Source: a virus
Taxonomy: Duplodnaviria > Heunggongvirae > Uroviricota > Caudoviricetes
DNA length: 40,697 bases
IMG/VR virus record: IMGVR_UViG_2541047891_000003
Direction: 5' to 3' (one strand)
Shown here: positions 12,716-17,829 of the stretch, piece after piece
Layout: each line of letters begins with the position of its first letter
Position numbering within the stretch: position 1 is the first letter of the stretch
Position numbers and translations under genes: made by a program
Notes under the pieces: generated by a model
Told to the model about the DNA's origin: nothing
What the model saw: the letters and a program-made list of their open reading frames with translations, nothing else
The model's database searches: none

Positions 12716-13765
12716 GTGCGGGTATTACTTCGACCTGTTCCGATACCGGAACTCGGGCTGGTGGTCCTTAAACCAGGCCGTGAATCCATGCAGGTATTTC
12801 ATAACTCTCGAGTGCTGGTGGAGCCGGAACCGAAAAGCATGCGCGGCCTGCCATCCGGGGTCGTCCCTGCCGTTCGCCAGCCGCTGGCTGAGGATAAATC
12901 ATTACTGCCATTTTTCAGCGATGAGCGGGTGATTCGTGCTGCTGGCGGCGCTGGCGCATTGTTTGACTGGTTACTGCGCCATGTTAAATCCTGCCAGTGG
13001 CCACACGGCGATTATCATCACAGCGAAACCGTCATTCACCGTTATGGTACCGGCGCGATGGTGTTGTGCTGGCACTGCGACAACCAGTTGCGTGACCAGA
13101 CATCCGAATCACTCGGGCAACTTGCTCATCAAAACCTGTCAGCATGGATGATTGACGTCATACGCCATGCAATGAATGGCACACAGGAGCGGGAATTATC
13201 GCTGGCTGAATTATCCTGGTGGGCAGTCTGCAATCAGGTGGCGGACGCGCTACCGGAGACAGTATTACGTCGTTCTCTGAGGTTACGTGCGGAAAAAATC
13301 CGCTCGGTGTACCGCGAAAGCGACATCATGCCGGGAGAGCAGACAGCCACCAGCATACTGAAGCAGCGCACAAAAAATATTGTGCTATCGCCTCACGCCC
13401 ACCAGCAACAGAACTCACCGCAGGAAAAGGCGGTGGTCAGCATTGCTGTTGATCCTGAGTCTCCGGAATCTTTCATGAAGCGACCTAAACGTCGCCGTTG
13501 GGTAAATGAGAAATATACGCGCTGGGTAAAGACACAGCCGTGTGCGTGTTGTGGTAAGCCAGCCGACGATCCCCATCACCTGATTGGTCACGGTCAGGGA
13601 GGGATGGGAACAAAGGCCCACGATATTTTCACGCTACCGTTGTGCCGGGAACATCACAATGAACTTCATGCGGATCCGCTGGCGTTCGAAGAAAAGCATG
13701 GTTCCCAGGTTGATTTAATTTTTCGTTTTCTTGATCACGCCTTTGCAACCGGCGTGCTCGGGTAA
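12716..13765 (+). CDS. ydfU: YdfU-like protein (DUF968, Cys/His-rich C-terminus)
   Basis: 349-aa ORF; C-terminus CACCGKPADDPHHLIGHGQGGMGTKAHD...CREHHNELH; same length as Qin YdfU. Confidence 0.7.
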   Translation: MRVLLRPVPIPELGLVVLKPGRESMQVFHNSRVLVEPEPKSMRGLPSGVVPAVRQPLAEDKSLLPFFSDERVIRAAGGAGALFDWLLRHVKSCQWPHGDYHHSETVIHRYGTGAMVLCWHCDNQLRDQTSESLGQLAHQNLSAWMIDVIRHAMNGTQERELSLAELSWWAVCNQVADALPETVLRRSLRLRAEKIRSVYRESDIMPGEQTATSILKQRTKNIVLSPHAHQQQNSPQEKAVVSIAVDPESPESFMKRPKRRRWVNEKYTRWVKTQPCACCGKPADDPHHLIGHGQGGMGTKAHDIFTLPLCREHHNELHADPLAFEEKHGSQVDLIFRFLDHAFATGVLG

Positions 13766-13777
13766 AAGAGGTTACTG

Positions 13778-14152
13778 ATGCGTATAGAGTTTGTTTTGCC
13801 TTATCCGCCGACGGTGAATACTTACTGGCGACGTCGTGGCAACACATATTTTGTATCAAAAGCCGGTGAGCGTTATCGTCGTGATGTGGCGCTCATTGTT
13901 CGCCAGCAGCGACTGAAATTAAACCTGTCCGGAAGGCTGGCGATAAAGATTATTGCAGAGCCACCGGATAAGCGCCGTCGTGACCTGGACAATATTCTGA
14001 AAGCACCACTGGATGCGCTGACGCATGCGGGACTGCTTATCGATGACGAGCAGTTTGATGAAATCAATATTGTGCGAGGTCAGGTCGTTCCTGGTGGTCG
14101 GCTGGGCGTGAAGATTTACGAAATAATGCATGACGGGCAGGTCCAAAAATGA
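13778..14152 (+). CDS. rusA: RusA-family Holliday junction resolvase
   Basis: 124-aa ORF with the RRRDLDNxxKAxxDALT motif typical of RusA. Confidence 0.85.
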   Translation: MRIEFVLPYPPTVNTYWRRRGNTYFVSKAGERYRRDVALIVRQQRLKLNLSGRLAIKIIAEPPDKRRRDLDNILKAPLDALTHAGLLIDDEQFDEINIVRGQVVPGGRLGVKIYEIMHDGQVQK

Positions 14153-14970
14153 AACTGGAAGATTTACCGAAATACTATTCCCCGAAATCGCCAGGCCTGA
14201 CTGATGCATCCGCCTCGACATCAAAAGATGCACTGAGTATCACTGATGTGATGGCTGCACAGGGCATGACACAGAACCGGGCTGAGATGGGATTTTCTGC
14301 GTTCCTGGGGAAAATGGGCATTAGTATGAACGACAGGGCGCGGGCAACAGAATTACTGGCAGATTATGCATTAAGTCAGTGCGATCGCGTGGCGGCGTTA
14401 AGAAAACTTCCGGCAGAAATAAAACCGGCAGTGATGCGCATTATGGCTTCGTATGCTTTTGAGGATTATGCCCGCAGTGCAGCGAGTAAAAAGCAGTGCC
14501 CTTGTTGCGGTGGGAAAAAATTTATTGAAAGCGTAGTTTTTACAAACAAGGTCCGGTATCCGGATGGTAAACCGCCGGTATGGGCAAAGTGTACAAAGGG
14601 TGTGTATCCGTCTTACTGGGAAGAATGGAAAAAAATCCGGGAGGTGGTGAAAGTTTCTTGTCCTGAATGTAAAGGGAAGGGGGAGATTTCCACTGCCTGT
14701 AAAGACTGCCGTGGGCGTGGTGTTGCCATTCATCGTGAAGAGTCGGAAAAACGGGGTATGCCTGTAATCAGGAACTGCCAGCGTTGTGGCGGTCGGGGCT
14801 ATGAAAGACTACCATCAACGGAGGCATTTAATGCCATACGCAAAGTGACGAGTGCTATCACGCTTGATACGTGGAAAAAATCAGTGAAACGCTTTTACGA
14901 TACGTTGGTGGTTCGGTTTGACATTGAAGAGGCATGGGCGGAGCGGCAGTTAAAGAGGGTAACGCGATAG
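14149..14970 (+). CDS. quuQ: Late-gene antiterminator Q (phage 82/Qin QuuQ-like, zinc-finger type)
   Basis: 273-aa ORF with multiple CxxC pairs; typical position upstream of the lysis genes. Confidence 0.75.
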   Translation: MKLEDLPKYYSPKSPGLTDASASTSKDALSITDVMAAQGMTQNRAEMGFSAFLGKMGISMNDRARATELLADYALSQCDRVAALRKLPAEIKPAVMRIMASYAFEDYARSAASKKQCPCCGGKKFIESVVFTNKVRYPDGKPPVWAKCTKGVYPSYWEEWKKIREVVKVSCPECKGKGEISTACKDCRGRGVAIHREESEKRGMPVIRNCQRCGGRGYERLPSTEAFNAIRKVTSAITLDTWKKSVKRFYDTLVVRFDIEEAWAERQLKRVTR

Positions 14971-14975
14971 TGTTG

Positions 14976-15003
14976 TTGATTTTTCCCGAATCTGTGGTAA
15001 ATT
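14976..15003 (+). promoter_or_regulatory. pR'-like late promoter candidate (TTGATT, 16-bp spacer, TAAATT)
   Basis: Hexamers just downstream of the Q stop; TAAATT resembles the lambda pR' -10 as I recall it. Confidence 0.5.
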
Positions 15004-15052
15004 TTCTCTAACGATGGGCGTTTTATGCCTGACGTTACAAGGATTTTTACAG

Positions 15053-15074
15053 CCCGCCATCGAGCGGGTTTTTT
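15053..15074 (+). terminator. tR'-like Rho-independent terminator (CCCGC-catcga-GCGGG then TTTTTT)
   Basis: 5-bp GC stem plus T-run about 50 nt downstream of the candidate pR' start, implying a short 6S-like transcript. Confidence 0.55.
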
Positions 15075-15209
15075 ATATCTGGAAAGCGGTGCATAACGTT
15101 AAACGTGATGGCGATTGCGCAATGAGTTTCTCCTGCTCTGAAGTCTCTTGACTGCATGGAATCTCCTTTGTTATGTAAGGTGAGTTAATGTTTTAAAATT
15201 GTTAGAGAG

Positions 15210-15929
15210 ATGGGTATGGATGACAGCACTCTGCTGAGGAACTCTTCACTTTTTATTGCTTATATGGGCTGTCTTGGATGGGGAAGCGCTTATTTCTATG
15301 GATGGGGGACTTCCTTTTACTATGGCTTTCCATGGTGGATCGTCGGGGCTGGCGTTGATGATGTGGCCCGAAGTTTGTTTTATGCTGTGAGCGTTATCGT
15401 TATATTCCTTACTGGATGGGGAGTAGGTATTGTTTTCTTTTTAGGCATAAAACAAAAAAACAATATACAGAATTTGAGTTTTATCAGACTTTTTCTGGCA
15501 ATATTGCTGCTTTTTATTCCGCCTGTTCTGGAGTTTTCGGTAATTCATCAGCACGTTGAGCCAGATGTGCTGTTTTTTTGTGTTATTGCTGCCTTTACAA
15601 TTACGCTTTTTGTCAGGTCAGGAGGAAGACTTATTTCAGTCAAATGTTTTTCGGAAGTGTCTTTTATTCGCCATCACCGAATTGAGTTTATTATGGCTGG
15701 ATTCATGATTTATTTCTGGACATTCTCTCTTATTGCCGGTTGGTATAAACCTCAGTTTAAGAGGGAATATCAGACGATCCACTATGAGAATACTTGGTAT
15801 TACGTTCTTGCACGCTATGATGATCGTCTGGTTTTATCGAAATCGTACAGTAATGGGAGTTCTGCATTCGTTATACTTAATAGCGGGCAGATTGATGACT
15901 TTGAAATTAATGTAGTCAGAGTTCGTTAA
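15210..15929 (+). CDS. Hypothetical polytopic inner-membrane protein (about 5 TM helices plus a ~70-aa C-terminal soluble domain); moron between Q and the tRNA/lysis genes
   Basis: 239-aa ORF, AT-rich, Trp/Phe/Tyr-rich TM segments; possible own promoter TTGACT-17-TTATGT near 15160; no family recognised. Confidence 0.6.
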   Translation: MGMDDSTLLRNSSLFIAYMGCLGWGSAYFYGWGTSFYYGFPWWIVGAGVDDVARSLFYAVSVIVIFLTGWGVGIVFFLGIKQKNNIQNLSFIRLFLAILLLFIPPVLEFSVIHQHVEPDVLFFCVIAAFTITLFVRSGGRLISVKCFSEVSFIRHHRIEFIMAGFMIYFWTFSLIAGWYKPQFKREYQTIHYENTWYYVLARYDDRLVLSKSYSNGSSAFVILNSGQIDDFEINVVRVR

Positions 15930-16051
15930 TATTGCCTGAGTAACTTTCTGTTGACCGCTCAGATTCTTTTATCATGTGTAGGCCAATATGCAGGATTTAA
16001 TCAGGGTAGGGTATTGCAGAGCTAAACTGGCATAAGTATTATTCCGCATAT

Positions 16052-16127
16052 GGCCCTTTAGCTCAGTGGTGAGAGCGAGCGACTCATAATCGCCAGGTCG
16101 CTGGTTCAAATCCAGCAAGGGCCACCA
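16052..16127 (+). tRNA. ileZ: tRNA-Ile2 (anticodon CAU, lysidine type; could alternatively be tRNA-Met)
   Basis: Cloverleaf with acceptor GGCCCTT/AAGGGCC, anticodon loop CTCATAA, T-loop TTCAAAT, CCA end; close to E. coli ileX as I recall it. Confidence 0.8.
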
Positions 16128-16128
16128 A

Positions 16129-16205
16129 CCGCCACTAGCTCATCAGGAAAGAGCGTCAACCCTTTAAGTTGAGAGTGCGAGGTTCGAGTCCCCGGTGGCG
16201 GTCCA
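16129..16205 (+). tRNA. tRNA with atypical anticodon loop CCTTTAA (anticodon UUU = Lys if canonical; C at position 33)
   Basis: Acceptor CCGCCAC/GTGGCGG, D-arm GCTC..GAGC, anticodon stem TCAAC/GTTGA, T-loop TTCGAGT, CCA end; identity uncertain. Confidence 0.6.
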
Positions 16206-16207
16206 GT

Positions 16208-16283
<76 letters not shown>

Positions 16284-16286
16284 TAT

Positions 16287-16361
<75 letters not shown>

Positions 16362-16367
16362 GTTAGA

Positions 16368-16492
16368 GTCTTTCAGTCTGCGATGATGGGAAATCCCTGA
16401 GTGACTGAAAGACGTTTAAGTTATGAATGATCGCTTTTTTTGCAAAATTGCTGTGCAGAAATACTAACCTTCGGGCAGGCGATCATTCATAA
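16368..16492. repeat. Two long inverted repeats: 11-bp arms GTCTTTCAGTC/GACTGAAAGAC and 14-bp arms TTATGAATGATCGC/GCGATCATTCATAA
   Basis: Perfect arms at 16368-16378/16403-16413 and 16421-16434/16479-16492, between the tRNA cluster and the holin. Confidence 0.7.
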
Positions 16493-16652
16493 GCACTCTG
16501 CTTTTATTCCGATTAACTGTGGGTGGTTTGTTGGATAGAGTGCTTCCCTTACTGTATATATCGTTTCGCCCGTTTTTGCGGTTTTTTCTTTTCAAATCCC
16601 TTTCATTTCTCAGTGTAAAACTACGCCATCCGTTATTTGCGGAGGTGAGGCT

Positions 16653-16868
16653 ATGAAATCCATGGACAAAATTTCAACGGGCATTGCCTACGGCACCTCC
16701 GCAGGCAGTGCTGGCTACTGGTTTTTACAGTGGCTTGATCAGGTCAGTCCGTCACAGTGGGCTGCGATTGGTGTACTGGGGAGTCTGGTTCTGGGCTTGC
16801 TGACGTATCTGACAAACCTTTATTTCAAGATTAAAGAAGATAAGCGTAAGGCTGCGAGAGGTGAATAA
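16653..16868 (+). CDS. S: Class II holin / pinholin (phage 21 S21-like, dual-start MKSM)
   Basis: 71-aa ORF, two TM segments, near-identical to S21 as I recall it; RBS GGAGGTGA upstream. Confidence 0.9.
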
Positions 16869-17365
16869 TGCCGCCATCATTACGCAAGGCTGTTGCTGCT
16901 GCTATTGGTGGTGGGGCTGTTGCCATAGCGTCTGTGCTCATCACTGGTCCGAGTGGTGACGATGGCCTGGAAGGTGTCAGCTACATACCATACAAAGATA
17001 TCGTTGGCGTATGGACTGTATGTCACGGACACACCGGAAAAGACATCATGCTCGGTAAAACGTATACCGAAGCAGAATGCAAAGCCCTCCTGAATAAAGA
17101 CCTTGCCACGGTCGCCAGACAAATTAACCCGTACATAAAAGTCGATATACCGGAAACAACGCGCGGCGCTCTTTACTCGTTCGTTTACAACGTGGGCGCT
17201 GGCAATTTCAGAACATCGACGCTTCTTCGCAAAATCAACCAGGGTGATATCAAAGGTGCGTGTGATCAGCTACGTCGCTGGACATACGCTGGTGGTAAGC
17301 AATGGAAAGGTCTCATGACTCGCCGTGAGATTGAGCGTGAAGTCTGTTTGTGGGGGCAACAATGA
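16868..17365 (+). CDS. R: SAR endolysin (lysozyme with N-terminal signal-anchor-release domain, R21-like)
   Basis: 165-aa ORF with a Gly/Ala-rich SAR N-terminus and a lysozyme domain; overlaps the holin stop. Confidence 0.9.
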
Positions 17366-17829
17366 GCAGAGTAACCGCGATTACCTCCGCTCTGGTTATC
17401 TGCATCATCGTCTGCCTGTCGTGGGCTGTTAATCATTACCGTGATAACGCCATCGCTTACAAAGAGCAGCGCGACAAAAACGCCAGAGAGTTGAAGCTGG
17501 CGAACGCCACCATCGCTGACATGCAGCAGCGTCAGCGTGATGTTGCTGCGCTCGATGCAAAGTACTCGAGAGAATTAGCCAATGCGAAAGCTGAAAATGA
17601 AACTCTGCGCGCTGATGTTGCCGCTGGTCGTAAGCGCCTGCGGGTCAATGCCAGTTGCTCCGCAGCCGTGCGTGAATCCACCGGACCCACCAGCGTGGAT
17701 AATGCAACCATCCCCCGACTGGCAGACACCGCTGAACGGGATTATTTCACCCTCAGAGAGCGGCTGATGACGATGCAGATGCAACTGGAAGGGGCACAGG
17801 AGTATATCCGCACTCAGTGCATTAAGTAG
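17362..17829 (+). CDS. Rz: Rz i-spanin
   Basis: ATG at 17362 overlapping the R stop (ATGA); N-terminal TM helix then coiled-coil. Confidence 0.85.
17582..17767 (+). CDS. Rz1: Rz1 o-spanin lipoprotein embedded in the +1 frame of Rz
   Basis: 61-aa ORF fully inside Rz; lipobox LVVSAC; proline-rich. Confidence 0.8.

Follow-up and report, generated by a model that had tools for sequence, protein, structure and literature searches.

RESULTS

The locus and its Q antiterminator

The window analyzed here is the whole 40,697-nucleotide (nt) stretch of IMG/VR virus record IMGVR_UViG_2541047891_000003, assigned to the Caudoviricetes. Its plus strand carries a gene for a Q antiterminator (14149 to 14970), directly followed by a candidate late promoter (pR'), a predicted pause element, and an intrinsic terminator (tR', 15051 to 15074). 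Beyond the terminator, on the same strand, lie a gene for a 239-amino-acid (aa) membrane-protein moron (15210 to 15929), four tightly packed tRNAs (16052 to 16361), a holin gene (16653 to 16868), a lysozyme gene (16868 to 17365), and Rz/Rz1 (17350 to 17829). This downstream annotation draws on the open reading frame (ORF) list, tRNA calls, and the RefSeq record of a 99.4% identical prophage. E. coli O18 (CP007275) contains a region with 99.4% identity.

The Q gene encodes a 273-aa protein of the Q-lambda family. It matches Pfam family PF03589 (E=2e-50) and shares 30% identity with lambda Q (E=5e-38), and a sequence search of the PDB returned matches only to Q-lambda (7ubm/7ubn/4mo1; phmmer to 7ubm, E=1.4e-40). 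A Foldseek search with an AF2 model of the protein likewise recovered, at E<=0.001, only Q-lambda structures (E=1.9e-12). The model has a pLDDT of 72 overall, with a confident body and a moderate arm (pLDDT 55 to 80), and we used it solely for the fold family and for the presence of an inserted beta-hairpin. In lambda, the N-terminal ~60 residues and the C-terminal VTR make the Q torus at the RNA-exit channel, and residues G39, L202, and T206 are needed for antitermination (PMC9388147). Both torus segments are conserved in the window Q, and the three residues have their counterparts in G39, L268, and T272, positions that vary little or not at all.

The window Q has an enlarged arm. Residues 183 to 217 align to the entire zinc ribbon of lambda Q, and residues ~117 to 174 are modeled as a second CxxC...CxxC site around a long beta-hairpin. 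In 39 homologues, no variation occurs at the eight cysteines of the two putative zinc sites (C117/C120/C171/C174 and C184/C187/C210/C213). This two-zinc arm (residues ~117 to 214) is encoded by window positions 14497 to 14790, and it also matches the DnaJ CXXCXGXG domain model just below threshold. A literature search on this Q type (quuQ, qO111) found neither a mapped pR' nor experimental work on the lineage, and quuQ-type Q proteins appear to be uncharacterized.

A second protein at the locus bears the Q name. Two genes upstream of Q, a DUF968/HNH-like protein (12716 to 13765; coordinates 817 to 1866 in loci L002 and L004) is labeled "Phage antitermination protein Q" in Evi and mEp460_ev081. 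Because this protein has no Q-family domain, the label looks like an annotation error.

A candidate promoter and a lambda-identical pause element directly follow Q

The stop codon of Q (TAG, 14968 to 14970) is separated by 5 nt from the hexamer TTGATT (14976 to 14981), read from the sequence as a candidate -35 element of pR'. The spacer, TTTCCCGAATCTGTGG (16 nt, 14982 to 14997), includes an extended -10 dinucleotide, T-15/G-14 (14995 to 14996), and is followed by the -10 hexamer TAAATT (14998 to 15003), which is the same as that of lambda pR'. The original prediction of TTGATT-16-TAAATT just downstream of Q thus holds up on direct reading, in its coordinates and in all of its spacings.

This candidate sigma70 promoter, TTGATT-16-TGn-TAAATT, is conserved, as described below, and its hexamers match 8/12 consensus positions, compared with 9/12 for those of lambda pR'. 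A generic promoter scan of the window did not list the site because the hexamers reach only 8/12, and the promoter call is therefore based on homology and conservation, not on consensus strength. By themselves, the hexamers are weak evidence for a promoter and stand barely above chance: TTGAYT-N16-TAAATT with at most one mismatch has 2 matches in the window, versus 0.56 expected. Judging from the sequence, it is the context, namely, the pause element, Q, and conservation, that appears to raise the site above chance.

Six nucleotides past the -10 hexamer begins AACGATGGG (15010 to 15018), identical in sequence and spacing to the sigma70-dependent pause element of lambda pR'. The window reads TAAATT-TTCTCT-AACGATGGG, with TTCTCT at 15004 to 15009, and lambda reads TAAATT-TGACTC-AACGATGGG. 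The combination TAAATT-N6-AACGATGGG, with 15 specified bases, has 1 exact occurrence in the window, and 0.11 occurrences would be expected even with up to two mismatches. In lambda, AACGAT (+1 to +6) is a -10-like element that is re-bound by sigma70 region 2 (PMC5001585; PMC9388147), and GGG at +7 to +9 is the pause-element discriminator (PMC5001585). Together, the two cause the promoter-proximal pause where Q loads (PMC5001585; PMC9388147). The lambda -6 to -1 segment supplies most of a -35-like TTGACT for repositioned sigma region 4 (PMC9388147).

The same two parts, AACGAT and the GGG discriminator, occupy +1 to +6 and +7 to +9 of the window element if transcription starts, as the lambda spacing predicts, at A15010. 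The lambda pause lies at +16/+17. U17/G18 and G8 of the window transcript fit the pattern given by the elemental pause sequence rule (PMC5001585), and a pause near +16/+17 (15025 to 15026) is therefore predicted. By this rule and by lambda analogy, we placed the promoter-proximal pause site at 15025 to 15027.

The promoter block is conserved across enterobacterial Q loci

For comparison, we assembled 125 loci encoding relatives of Q: 41 from genomes of distinct enterobacterial species, 80 from viral contigs, and 4 from phage records, including lambda. Anchoring on an AACGAT-like motif gave 123 usable regions, 82 of them unique. One of these (L031) had no recognizable promoter and was set aside, so that 81 unique Q-downstream regions were analyzed, spanning Q identities of 30 to 100% and many enterobacterial genera.

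The layout of -10 element, N6, and pause element is constant in all 81 regions. Within the pause element, A2 and T6 are invariant (81/81) and G8 is present in 80/81; in a -10 element, these two positions would correspond to the critical bases -11A and -7T, for A2 and T6, respectively. In the -10 hexamer itself, position -11 is A in 79 of the 81 sequences and position -7 is T, again, in 79.

Among 42 unique close relatives, 17 to 33% of columns vary in the -35 hexamer window, the spacer, and the -10 hexamer, compared with 73% in the last 15 nt before the promoter (the 3' end of Q and its stop codon), 100% from -6 to -1, and 85% in the +29 to +41 linker. The -35 hexamer TTGATT is almost invariant in this group; other genera have TTTACT, the Qin-like clade has TTGCAA/T, and lambda has TTGACT. 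All six columns between the -10 hexamer and the predicted start vary among close relatives, most of which have TGCTCT or TGCCCT where the window has TTCTCT.

Across genera, at 25 loci whose Q proteins are 53 to 69% identical to that of the window, the DNA of the Q gene has a mean identity to the window of about 58%, whereas the block from -34 to -7 reaches 84% and the pause element (+1 to +9) reaches 94%. The flanks, at 26 to 31%, are unalignable.

Six non-E. coli loci (L008, L009, L012, L018, L026, and L030) have an extra 17 to 32 nt between the Q stop codon and the -35 hexamer. This extra segment, ~20 to 60 nt upstream of the -35 hexamer, contains an inverted repeat (e.g., GCTCACG-20 nt-CGTGAGC in L009). 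The window does not contain such a repeat upstream of its -35 hexamer.

Spacer sequences track Q clades

In close relatives, the spacer has a mean majority frequency of 0.987. Spacers of the class TTTCC[C/G]GAATCTGTG accompany Q proteins of at least 53% identity, and the class TTCAAAAAAnnTGG accompanies the Qin/QuuQ-like clade, with about 40% Q identity; two more versions are found in L045 and in lambda. The spacer is therefore strongly conserved within a clade and changes with the Q clade. In lambda, qut/QBE lies partly between the -35 and -10 elements (PMC6266700). Comparison of the window spacer with the whole lambda spacer, which contains the lambda QBE, revealed no similarity. Spacer classes that track Q clades are the pattern expected of a cognate Q-binding element, and we regard the window spacer (14982 to 14997) as a candidate for that role.

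A terminator ends a predicted leader RNA of ~65 nt

The terminator tR' (15051 to 15074) consists of a 7-bp stem with 5 G-C pairs (AGCCCGC/GCGGGTT, 15051 to 15070), a 6-nt loop (CATCGA), and U6, encoded by T6 at 15069 to 15074. It begins 47 nt beyond the -10 hexamer, which agrees with the hairpin terminator originally proposed within about 50 nt of the promoter. The predicted fold has a free energy of -11.2 kcal/mol (z = -3.0). In a scan for terminators, tR' is the first on the plus strand; the whole scan returned 7 sites, versus 6.4 expected. No T-run follows the stem on the reverse strand, so the terminator would function in the plus direction only. The predicted 3' end, at about 15074 to 15076, gives a leader RNA of ~65 nt, in which the A/U-rich linker ACAAGGAUUUUUAC (15037 to 15050) upstream of the terminator is single stranded, being unpaired in a fold of the whole RNA.

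Terminators at this position are a feature of nearly the whole family. Under one fixed rule (a hairpin plus a T-run), applied to relatives and controls alike, a terminator was found in 76 of the 81 unique regions, with the stem ending between +50 and +68 in 75 and at +94 in one (median, +59). For the controls, the rate under this rule was 4.2% in windows drawn at random from the same loci and 2.2% in shuffled sequences. The relatives use at least five unrelated stem sequences. Within the close clade, changes in the tR' stem are wobble compatible and the loops vary, and the linker is less conserved (11/13 columns from +29 to +41 vary). Since nearly all relatives have short leaders, the 194-nt 6S RNA of lambda is an outlier, and ~55 to 75 nt is the family norm.

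A potential stem-loop at the 5' end of the leader RNA

The first 27 nt of the predicted transcript could form a 5'-terminal stem-loop (AACG..GGGCGU-UUU-AUGCCU..CGUU, 15010 to 15036, plus strand) that is flush with +1. Its minimum free energy (MFE) is -9.3 kcal/mol (z = -2.7), and most of 47 unique variants likewise have, as their MFE structure, a hairpin that starts at the 5' end or 1 nt from it. The corresponding lambda hairpin (L001, 788 to 812) is paired from +2, with -9.1 kcal/mol and z = -3.3. Taking in loci L005 to L045 as well, nearly all pR' regions of the Q-lambda family are predicted to give transcripts with such a 5' stem-loop.

The pause element dictates the sequence of the 5' arm, which leaves one question, namely, whether selection acts on the 3' arm to pair with it. 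Two unrelated downstream sequence types have the same 3' arm, (T)CGTT, and in L027 and L028 the arms are AACA/TGTT, a double change relative to AACG/CGTT. Within the main type, no covariation beyond column composition was detected: 93.2% of cells pair, the same as in shuffles. Because this 93% equals the shuffled control and the main type has no double changes, we do not claim covariation. A cross-type shuffle test over five sequence types gave a Fisher p of about 2e-4 under the optimistic assumption that the lineages are independent. Taken as a prediction, the retention of the 5' stem-loop across the family is a modest lead.

Such a structure raises the possibility that the leader RNA is functional, either because the stem-loop shields the 5' end of the late mRNA or because the ~65-nt RNA acts in lysogens as a small RNA (sRNA) like StxS. 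We consider this unlikely on present evidence, though not negligible. If it were true, the stem-loop could guard a very long late mRNA from 5'-end-dependent decay.

The more specific idea, that the short pR'-tR' RNA is itself functional, as an Hfq-type trans-acting sRNA or through a cis-acting 5' stem-loop, would add to the Q switch and seems to us somewhat less probable again. StxS provides a precedent, demonstrating that a constitutive late leader terminated at tR' can be a regulatory sRNA, and the lambda 6S RNA is still without an assigned function (PMC7547250). Like the predicted window RNA, StxS is short, arises constitutively from an antiterminated late promoter, and has its end at tR'; it derives from a 258-nt leader that RNase E cuts to 74 nt (PMC7547250). 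It differs in its Q type, and its sequence has no similarity to the window RNA. The architecture of the predicted 65-nt RNA is StxS-like: a hairpin at the 5' end, then a single-stranded, U-rich linker, then a terminator carrying U6. Predictions also place a stem-loop flush with +1 throughout the family, lambda included, in several unrelated downstream sequence types. However, the linker, where a seed would most likely lie, is conserved less than any other part of the RNA and is wholly different between clades, and pairing of the 5' hairpin in the main type does not covary above column composition. Constraints on the DNA, from the pause element and from sequences affecting pause escape (PMC4005639), could also account for the conservation from +1 to +28.

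The length of the RNA also led us to suspect HnrS, a known multicopy prophage sRNA of 66 nt. Its sequence, taken from the primer table of a preprint, is unrelated to the window RNA and absent from the window, and this identity was rejected.

Q, pR', the pause element, and tR' form a mosaic module

The Q-pR'-tR' region has a match in 2,467 of 5,426 complete E. coli genomes. Among the 30 matches listed of these 2,467, most end at query positions 377 to 379, corresponding to window positions 15076 to 15078; among the E. coli matches listed, a separate class begins at 15091. Phage matches to the segment from 14900 to 15210 end at 15074 to 15076. From the other side, homology to the moron of phage 434 (L127, 1501 to 2336, aligned to window 15091 to 15929, with about 76% DNA identity) begins just past the tR' of an unrelated, Q82-like Q. 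A mosaic junction thus lies at 15076 to 15091, between the Q-pR'-tR' module and the moron cassette. Since homology typically ends at 15076, right past the terminator, we view Q-pR'-tR' as one mosaic module: across the sequences compared, Q, pR', the pause element, and tR' appear to travel together, with the cargo swapped immediately past the terminator.

The module boundary bears on the view that the hairpin is mainly a terminator of the early Q operon and that the hexamers are either a chance occurrence or a Q-independent promoter of the moron and tRNAs. The hexamers are weak (8/12) and missing from the generic scan, the one-mismatch pattern is not rare in the window (2 found, 0.56 expected), and the terminator comes only about 80 nt past the Q stop codon, all of which would fit this view. 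Against it stand a pause element identical to that of lambda and at an identical spacing, the much better conservation of the promoter block than of the Q coding DNA or the flanks, and the linkage of the promoter, pause element, and terminator to Q through exchanges of the downstream genes. A promoter belonging to the moron or tRNAs would be expected to stay with its genes. Because the block instead moves with Q and not with the cargo, we consider a chance or moron-specific promoter very improbable.

A leader-peptide attenuator of the Trp-leader kind, in place of a Q-controlled terminator, is scarcely credible: the Rfam Trp_leader match over 14989 to 15077 (21.2 bits, E=0.37) falls far under the gathering threshold of 41 bits, and although an ATG within AACGATGGG opens a 45-codon ORF (15014 to 15151), that ORF lacks a ribosome-binding site, has no family match, crosses the module junction, and varies in length (the commonest variant has about 22 codons before the stop, and lambda has 2), and no alternative antiterminator pairing was seen in the RNA fold. 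The first three of these properties also led us to reject the ORF as coding. Apart from this subthreshold match, the Rfam search of the window returned only tRNAs.

Genes downstream of the terminator

From gene order, we presume that the moron, the tRNAs, and the lysis genes (15210 to 17829) are read by Q-modified polymerase. That all of them depend on Q alone is plausible. A promoter-like sequence, TTGACT-N17-TGTTATG, is present in the moron cassette at 15149 to 15180, and the form TTGAC-N17-TGTTATG is conserved and shared with the phage 434 homologue, which makes it a possible moron promoter. No Pfam or NCBIfam family was found for the 239-aa moron.

Several further features were observed in this region. 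Inside the moron ORF are a terminator-like hairpin with T7 (15549 to 15572) and a 16-nt A/T-rich inverted repeat (15447 to 15462 and 15571 to 15586); Q-modified polymerase would ignore the moron-internal hairpin, but a transcript from a moron promoter might not. The sequence TTGCAG-17-TATTAT (16014 to 16042), whose end lies 9 nt upstream of the first tRNA, could provide the tRNAs with a weak promoter of their own. This first tRNA is called tRNA-Met (CAT) by ARAGORN and tRNA-Ile in the RefSeq record of the 99.4% identical prophage. The gap between the tRNAs and the holin gene contains two perfect inverted repeats, one with 11-nt arms 24 nt apart (16368 to 16413) and one with 14-nt arms 44 nt apart and T7 just past the first arm (16421 to 16492). 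These may be processing or termination structures within the late transcript.

DISCUSSION

The region downstream of Q was originally proposed to have the pR'-qut-tR' arrangement, and in sequence terms we find a Q of the right family, a candidate promoter, the lambda pause element, and a terminator in the right order and at the right spacing. We conclude, with considerable confidence, that the region controls the late genes of a lambdoid prophage, has the build of lambda pR'-qut-tR', and probably works by the lambda mechanism.

In the proposed comparison with lambda and phage 82, the window fits the lambda layout and not that of phage 82. Shared with lambda are a Q of the same Pfam family and fold, a candidate promoter directly after Q, a TAAATT -10 hexamer, a 6-nt gap, the AACGATGGG pause element with its GGG discriminator, an intrinsic terminator ending in a similar TTTTTTATATCTG, and a stem-loop predicted from the 5' end of the RNA. 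In contrast, the Q proteins of phage 82 (Q82, PF06323) and phage 21 (Q21, PF06530) are unrelated to the window Q. In phage 82, the discriminator of the -10-like element lies at +15 to +17 and the pause at +25 (PMC5001585), and Q21 is a dimer that binds a direct repeat (PMC9388147).

The window also departs from lambda in several respects. Its leader is about 65 nt long, compared with 194 nt in lambda. Its spacer is 16 nt long, unrelated in sequence, and equipped with an extended -10 TG, whereas the lambda spacer is 17 nt. The window has no TTGACT-like element just upstream of the pause element, unlike lambda, in which this element serves sigma region 4 near the pause. Finally, the window Q has 273 aa, compared with 207 in lambda, owing to an arm that is about 66 residues longer and that adds, according to the model, a second CxxC/CxxC zinc site and a long beta-hairpin to the DNA-binding arm, where lambda Q has one zinc ribbon. 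Because the spacer is unrelated and 1 nt shorter, the -6 to -1 segment is variable, and the Q arm is larger, the geometry by which Q docks and loads may differ from that in lambda.

By analogy with lambda, we infer where transcription starts, that it pauses, and that Q binds and brings about readthrough, as follows. Host sigma70 RNA polymerase would start constitutively at about A15010 from TTGATT-16-TGn-TAAATT. Sigma region 2 would then re-bind AACGAT (+1 to +6) and GGG (+7 to +9) on the nontemplate strand, and the complex would scrunch and pause near +16/+17. In lysogens, without Q, polymerase would resume, stop at 15051 to 15074, and free an RNA of ~65 nt with its 3' end at 15074 to 15076. 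Once accumulated, Q would bind its own DNA site in the promoter spacer (about 14982 to 14997) and load onto the paused complex such that its N- and C-terminal segments lie at the RNA-exit channel. Because Q-modified polymerase resists terminators, it would during lytic growth read through tR' into the moron, tRNA, lysis, head, and tail genes.

The same cassette, with Q, a promoter, N6, AACGATGGG, a short leader, and a terminator, occurs with Qin/QuuQ-type and other long-arm Q proteins of the Q-lambda family in enterobacterial prophages (Gifsy-2, mEp237, mEp460, Evi, and an Stx2a phage). Those of mEp460, Evi, and Stx2_EH1910 are the same module as that of the window, with 81 to 92% DNA identity. 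The Qin-like clade, with about 40% Q identity, differs in its spacer (TTCAAAAAAnnTGG) and in its -10 hexamer, TAGGAT or TAAAAT. Judging from a literature search, the Qin/QuuQ-type and other long-arm lineages seem not to have been the subject of experiments.

The textbook mechanism of late-gene control is unchanged by these findings, and the cassette is an uncharacterized addition to the lambda-type late switch, useful for annotation and not surprising biologically. If the assignment by analogy is right, it fixes the regulatory anatomy of this prophage, placing the late and lysis genes, the four tRNAs, and probably the moron behind one Q-controlled terminator. Almost half of the complete E. coli genomes carry the module, as does at least one Stx2a phage; because the module is so widespread, its Q and spacer would represent a widespread, uncharacterized specificity class. 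The comparative table assembled here is a natural set of matched pairs of Q and candidate Q-binding site, together with pause-element positions that never vary, and these matched pairs could guide the study of DNA recognition by two-zinc-arm relatives of Q-lambda.
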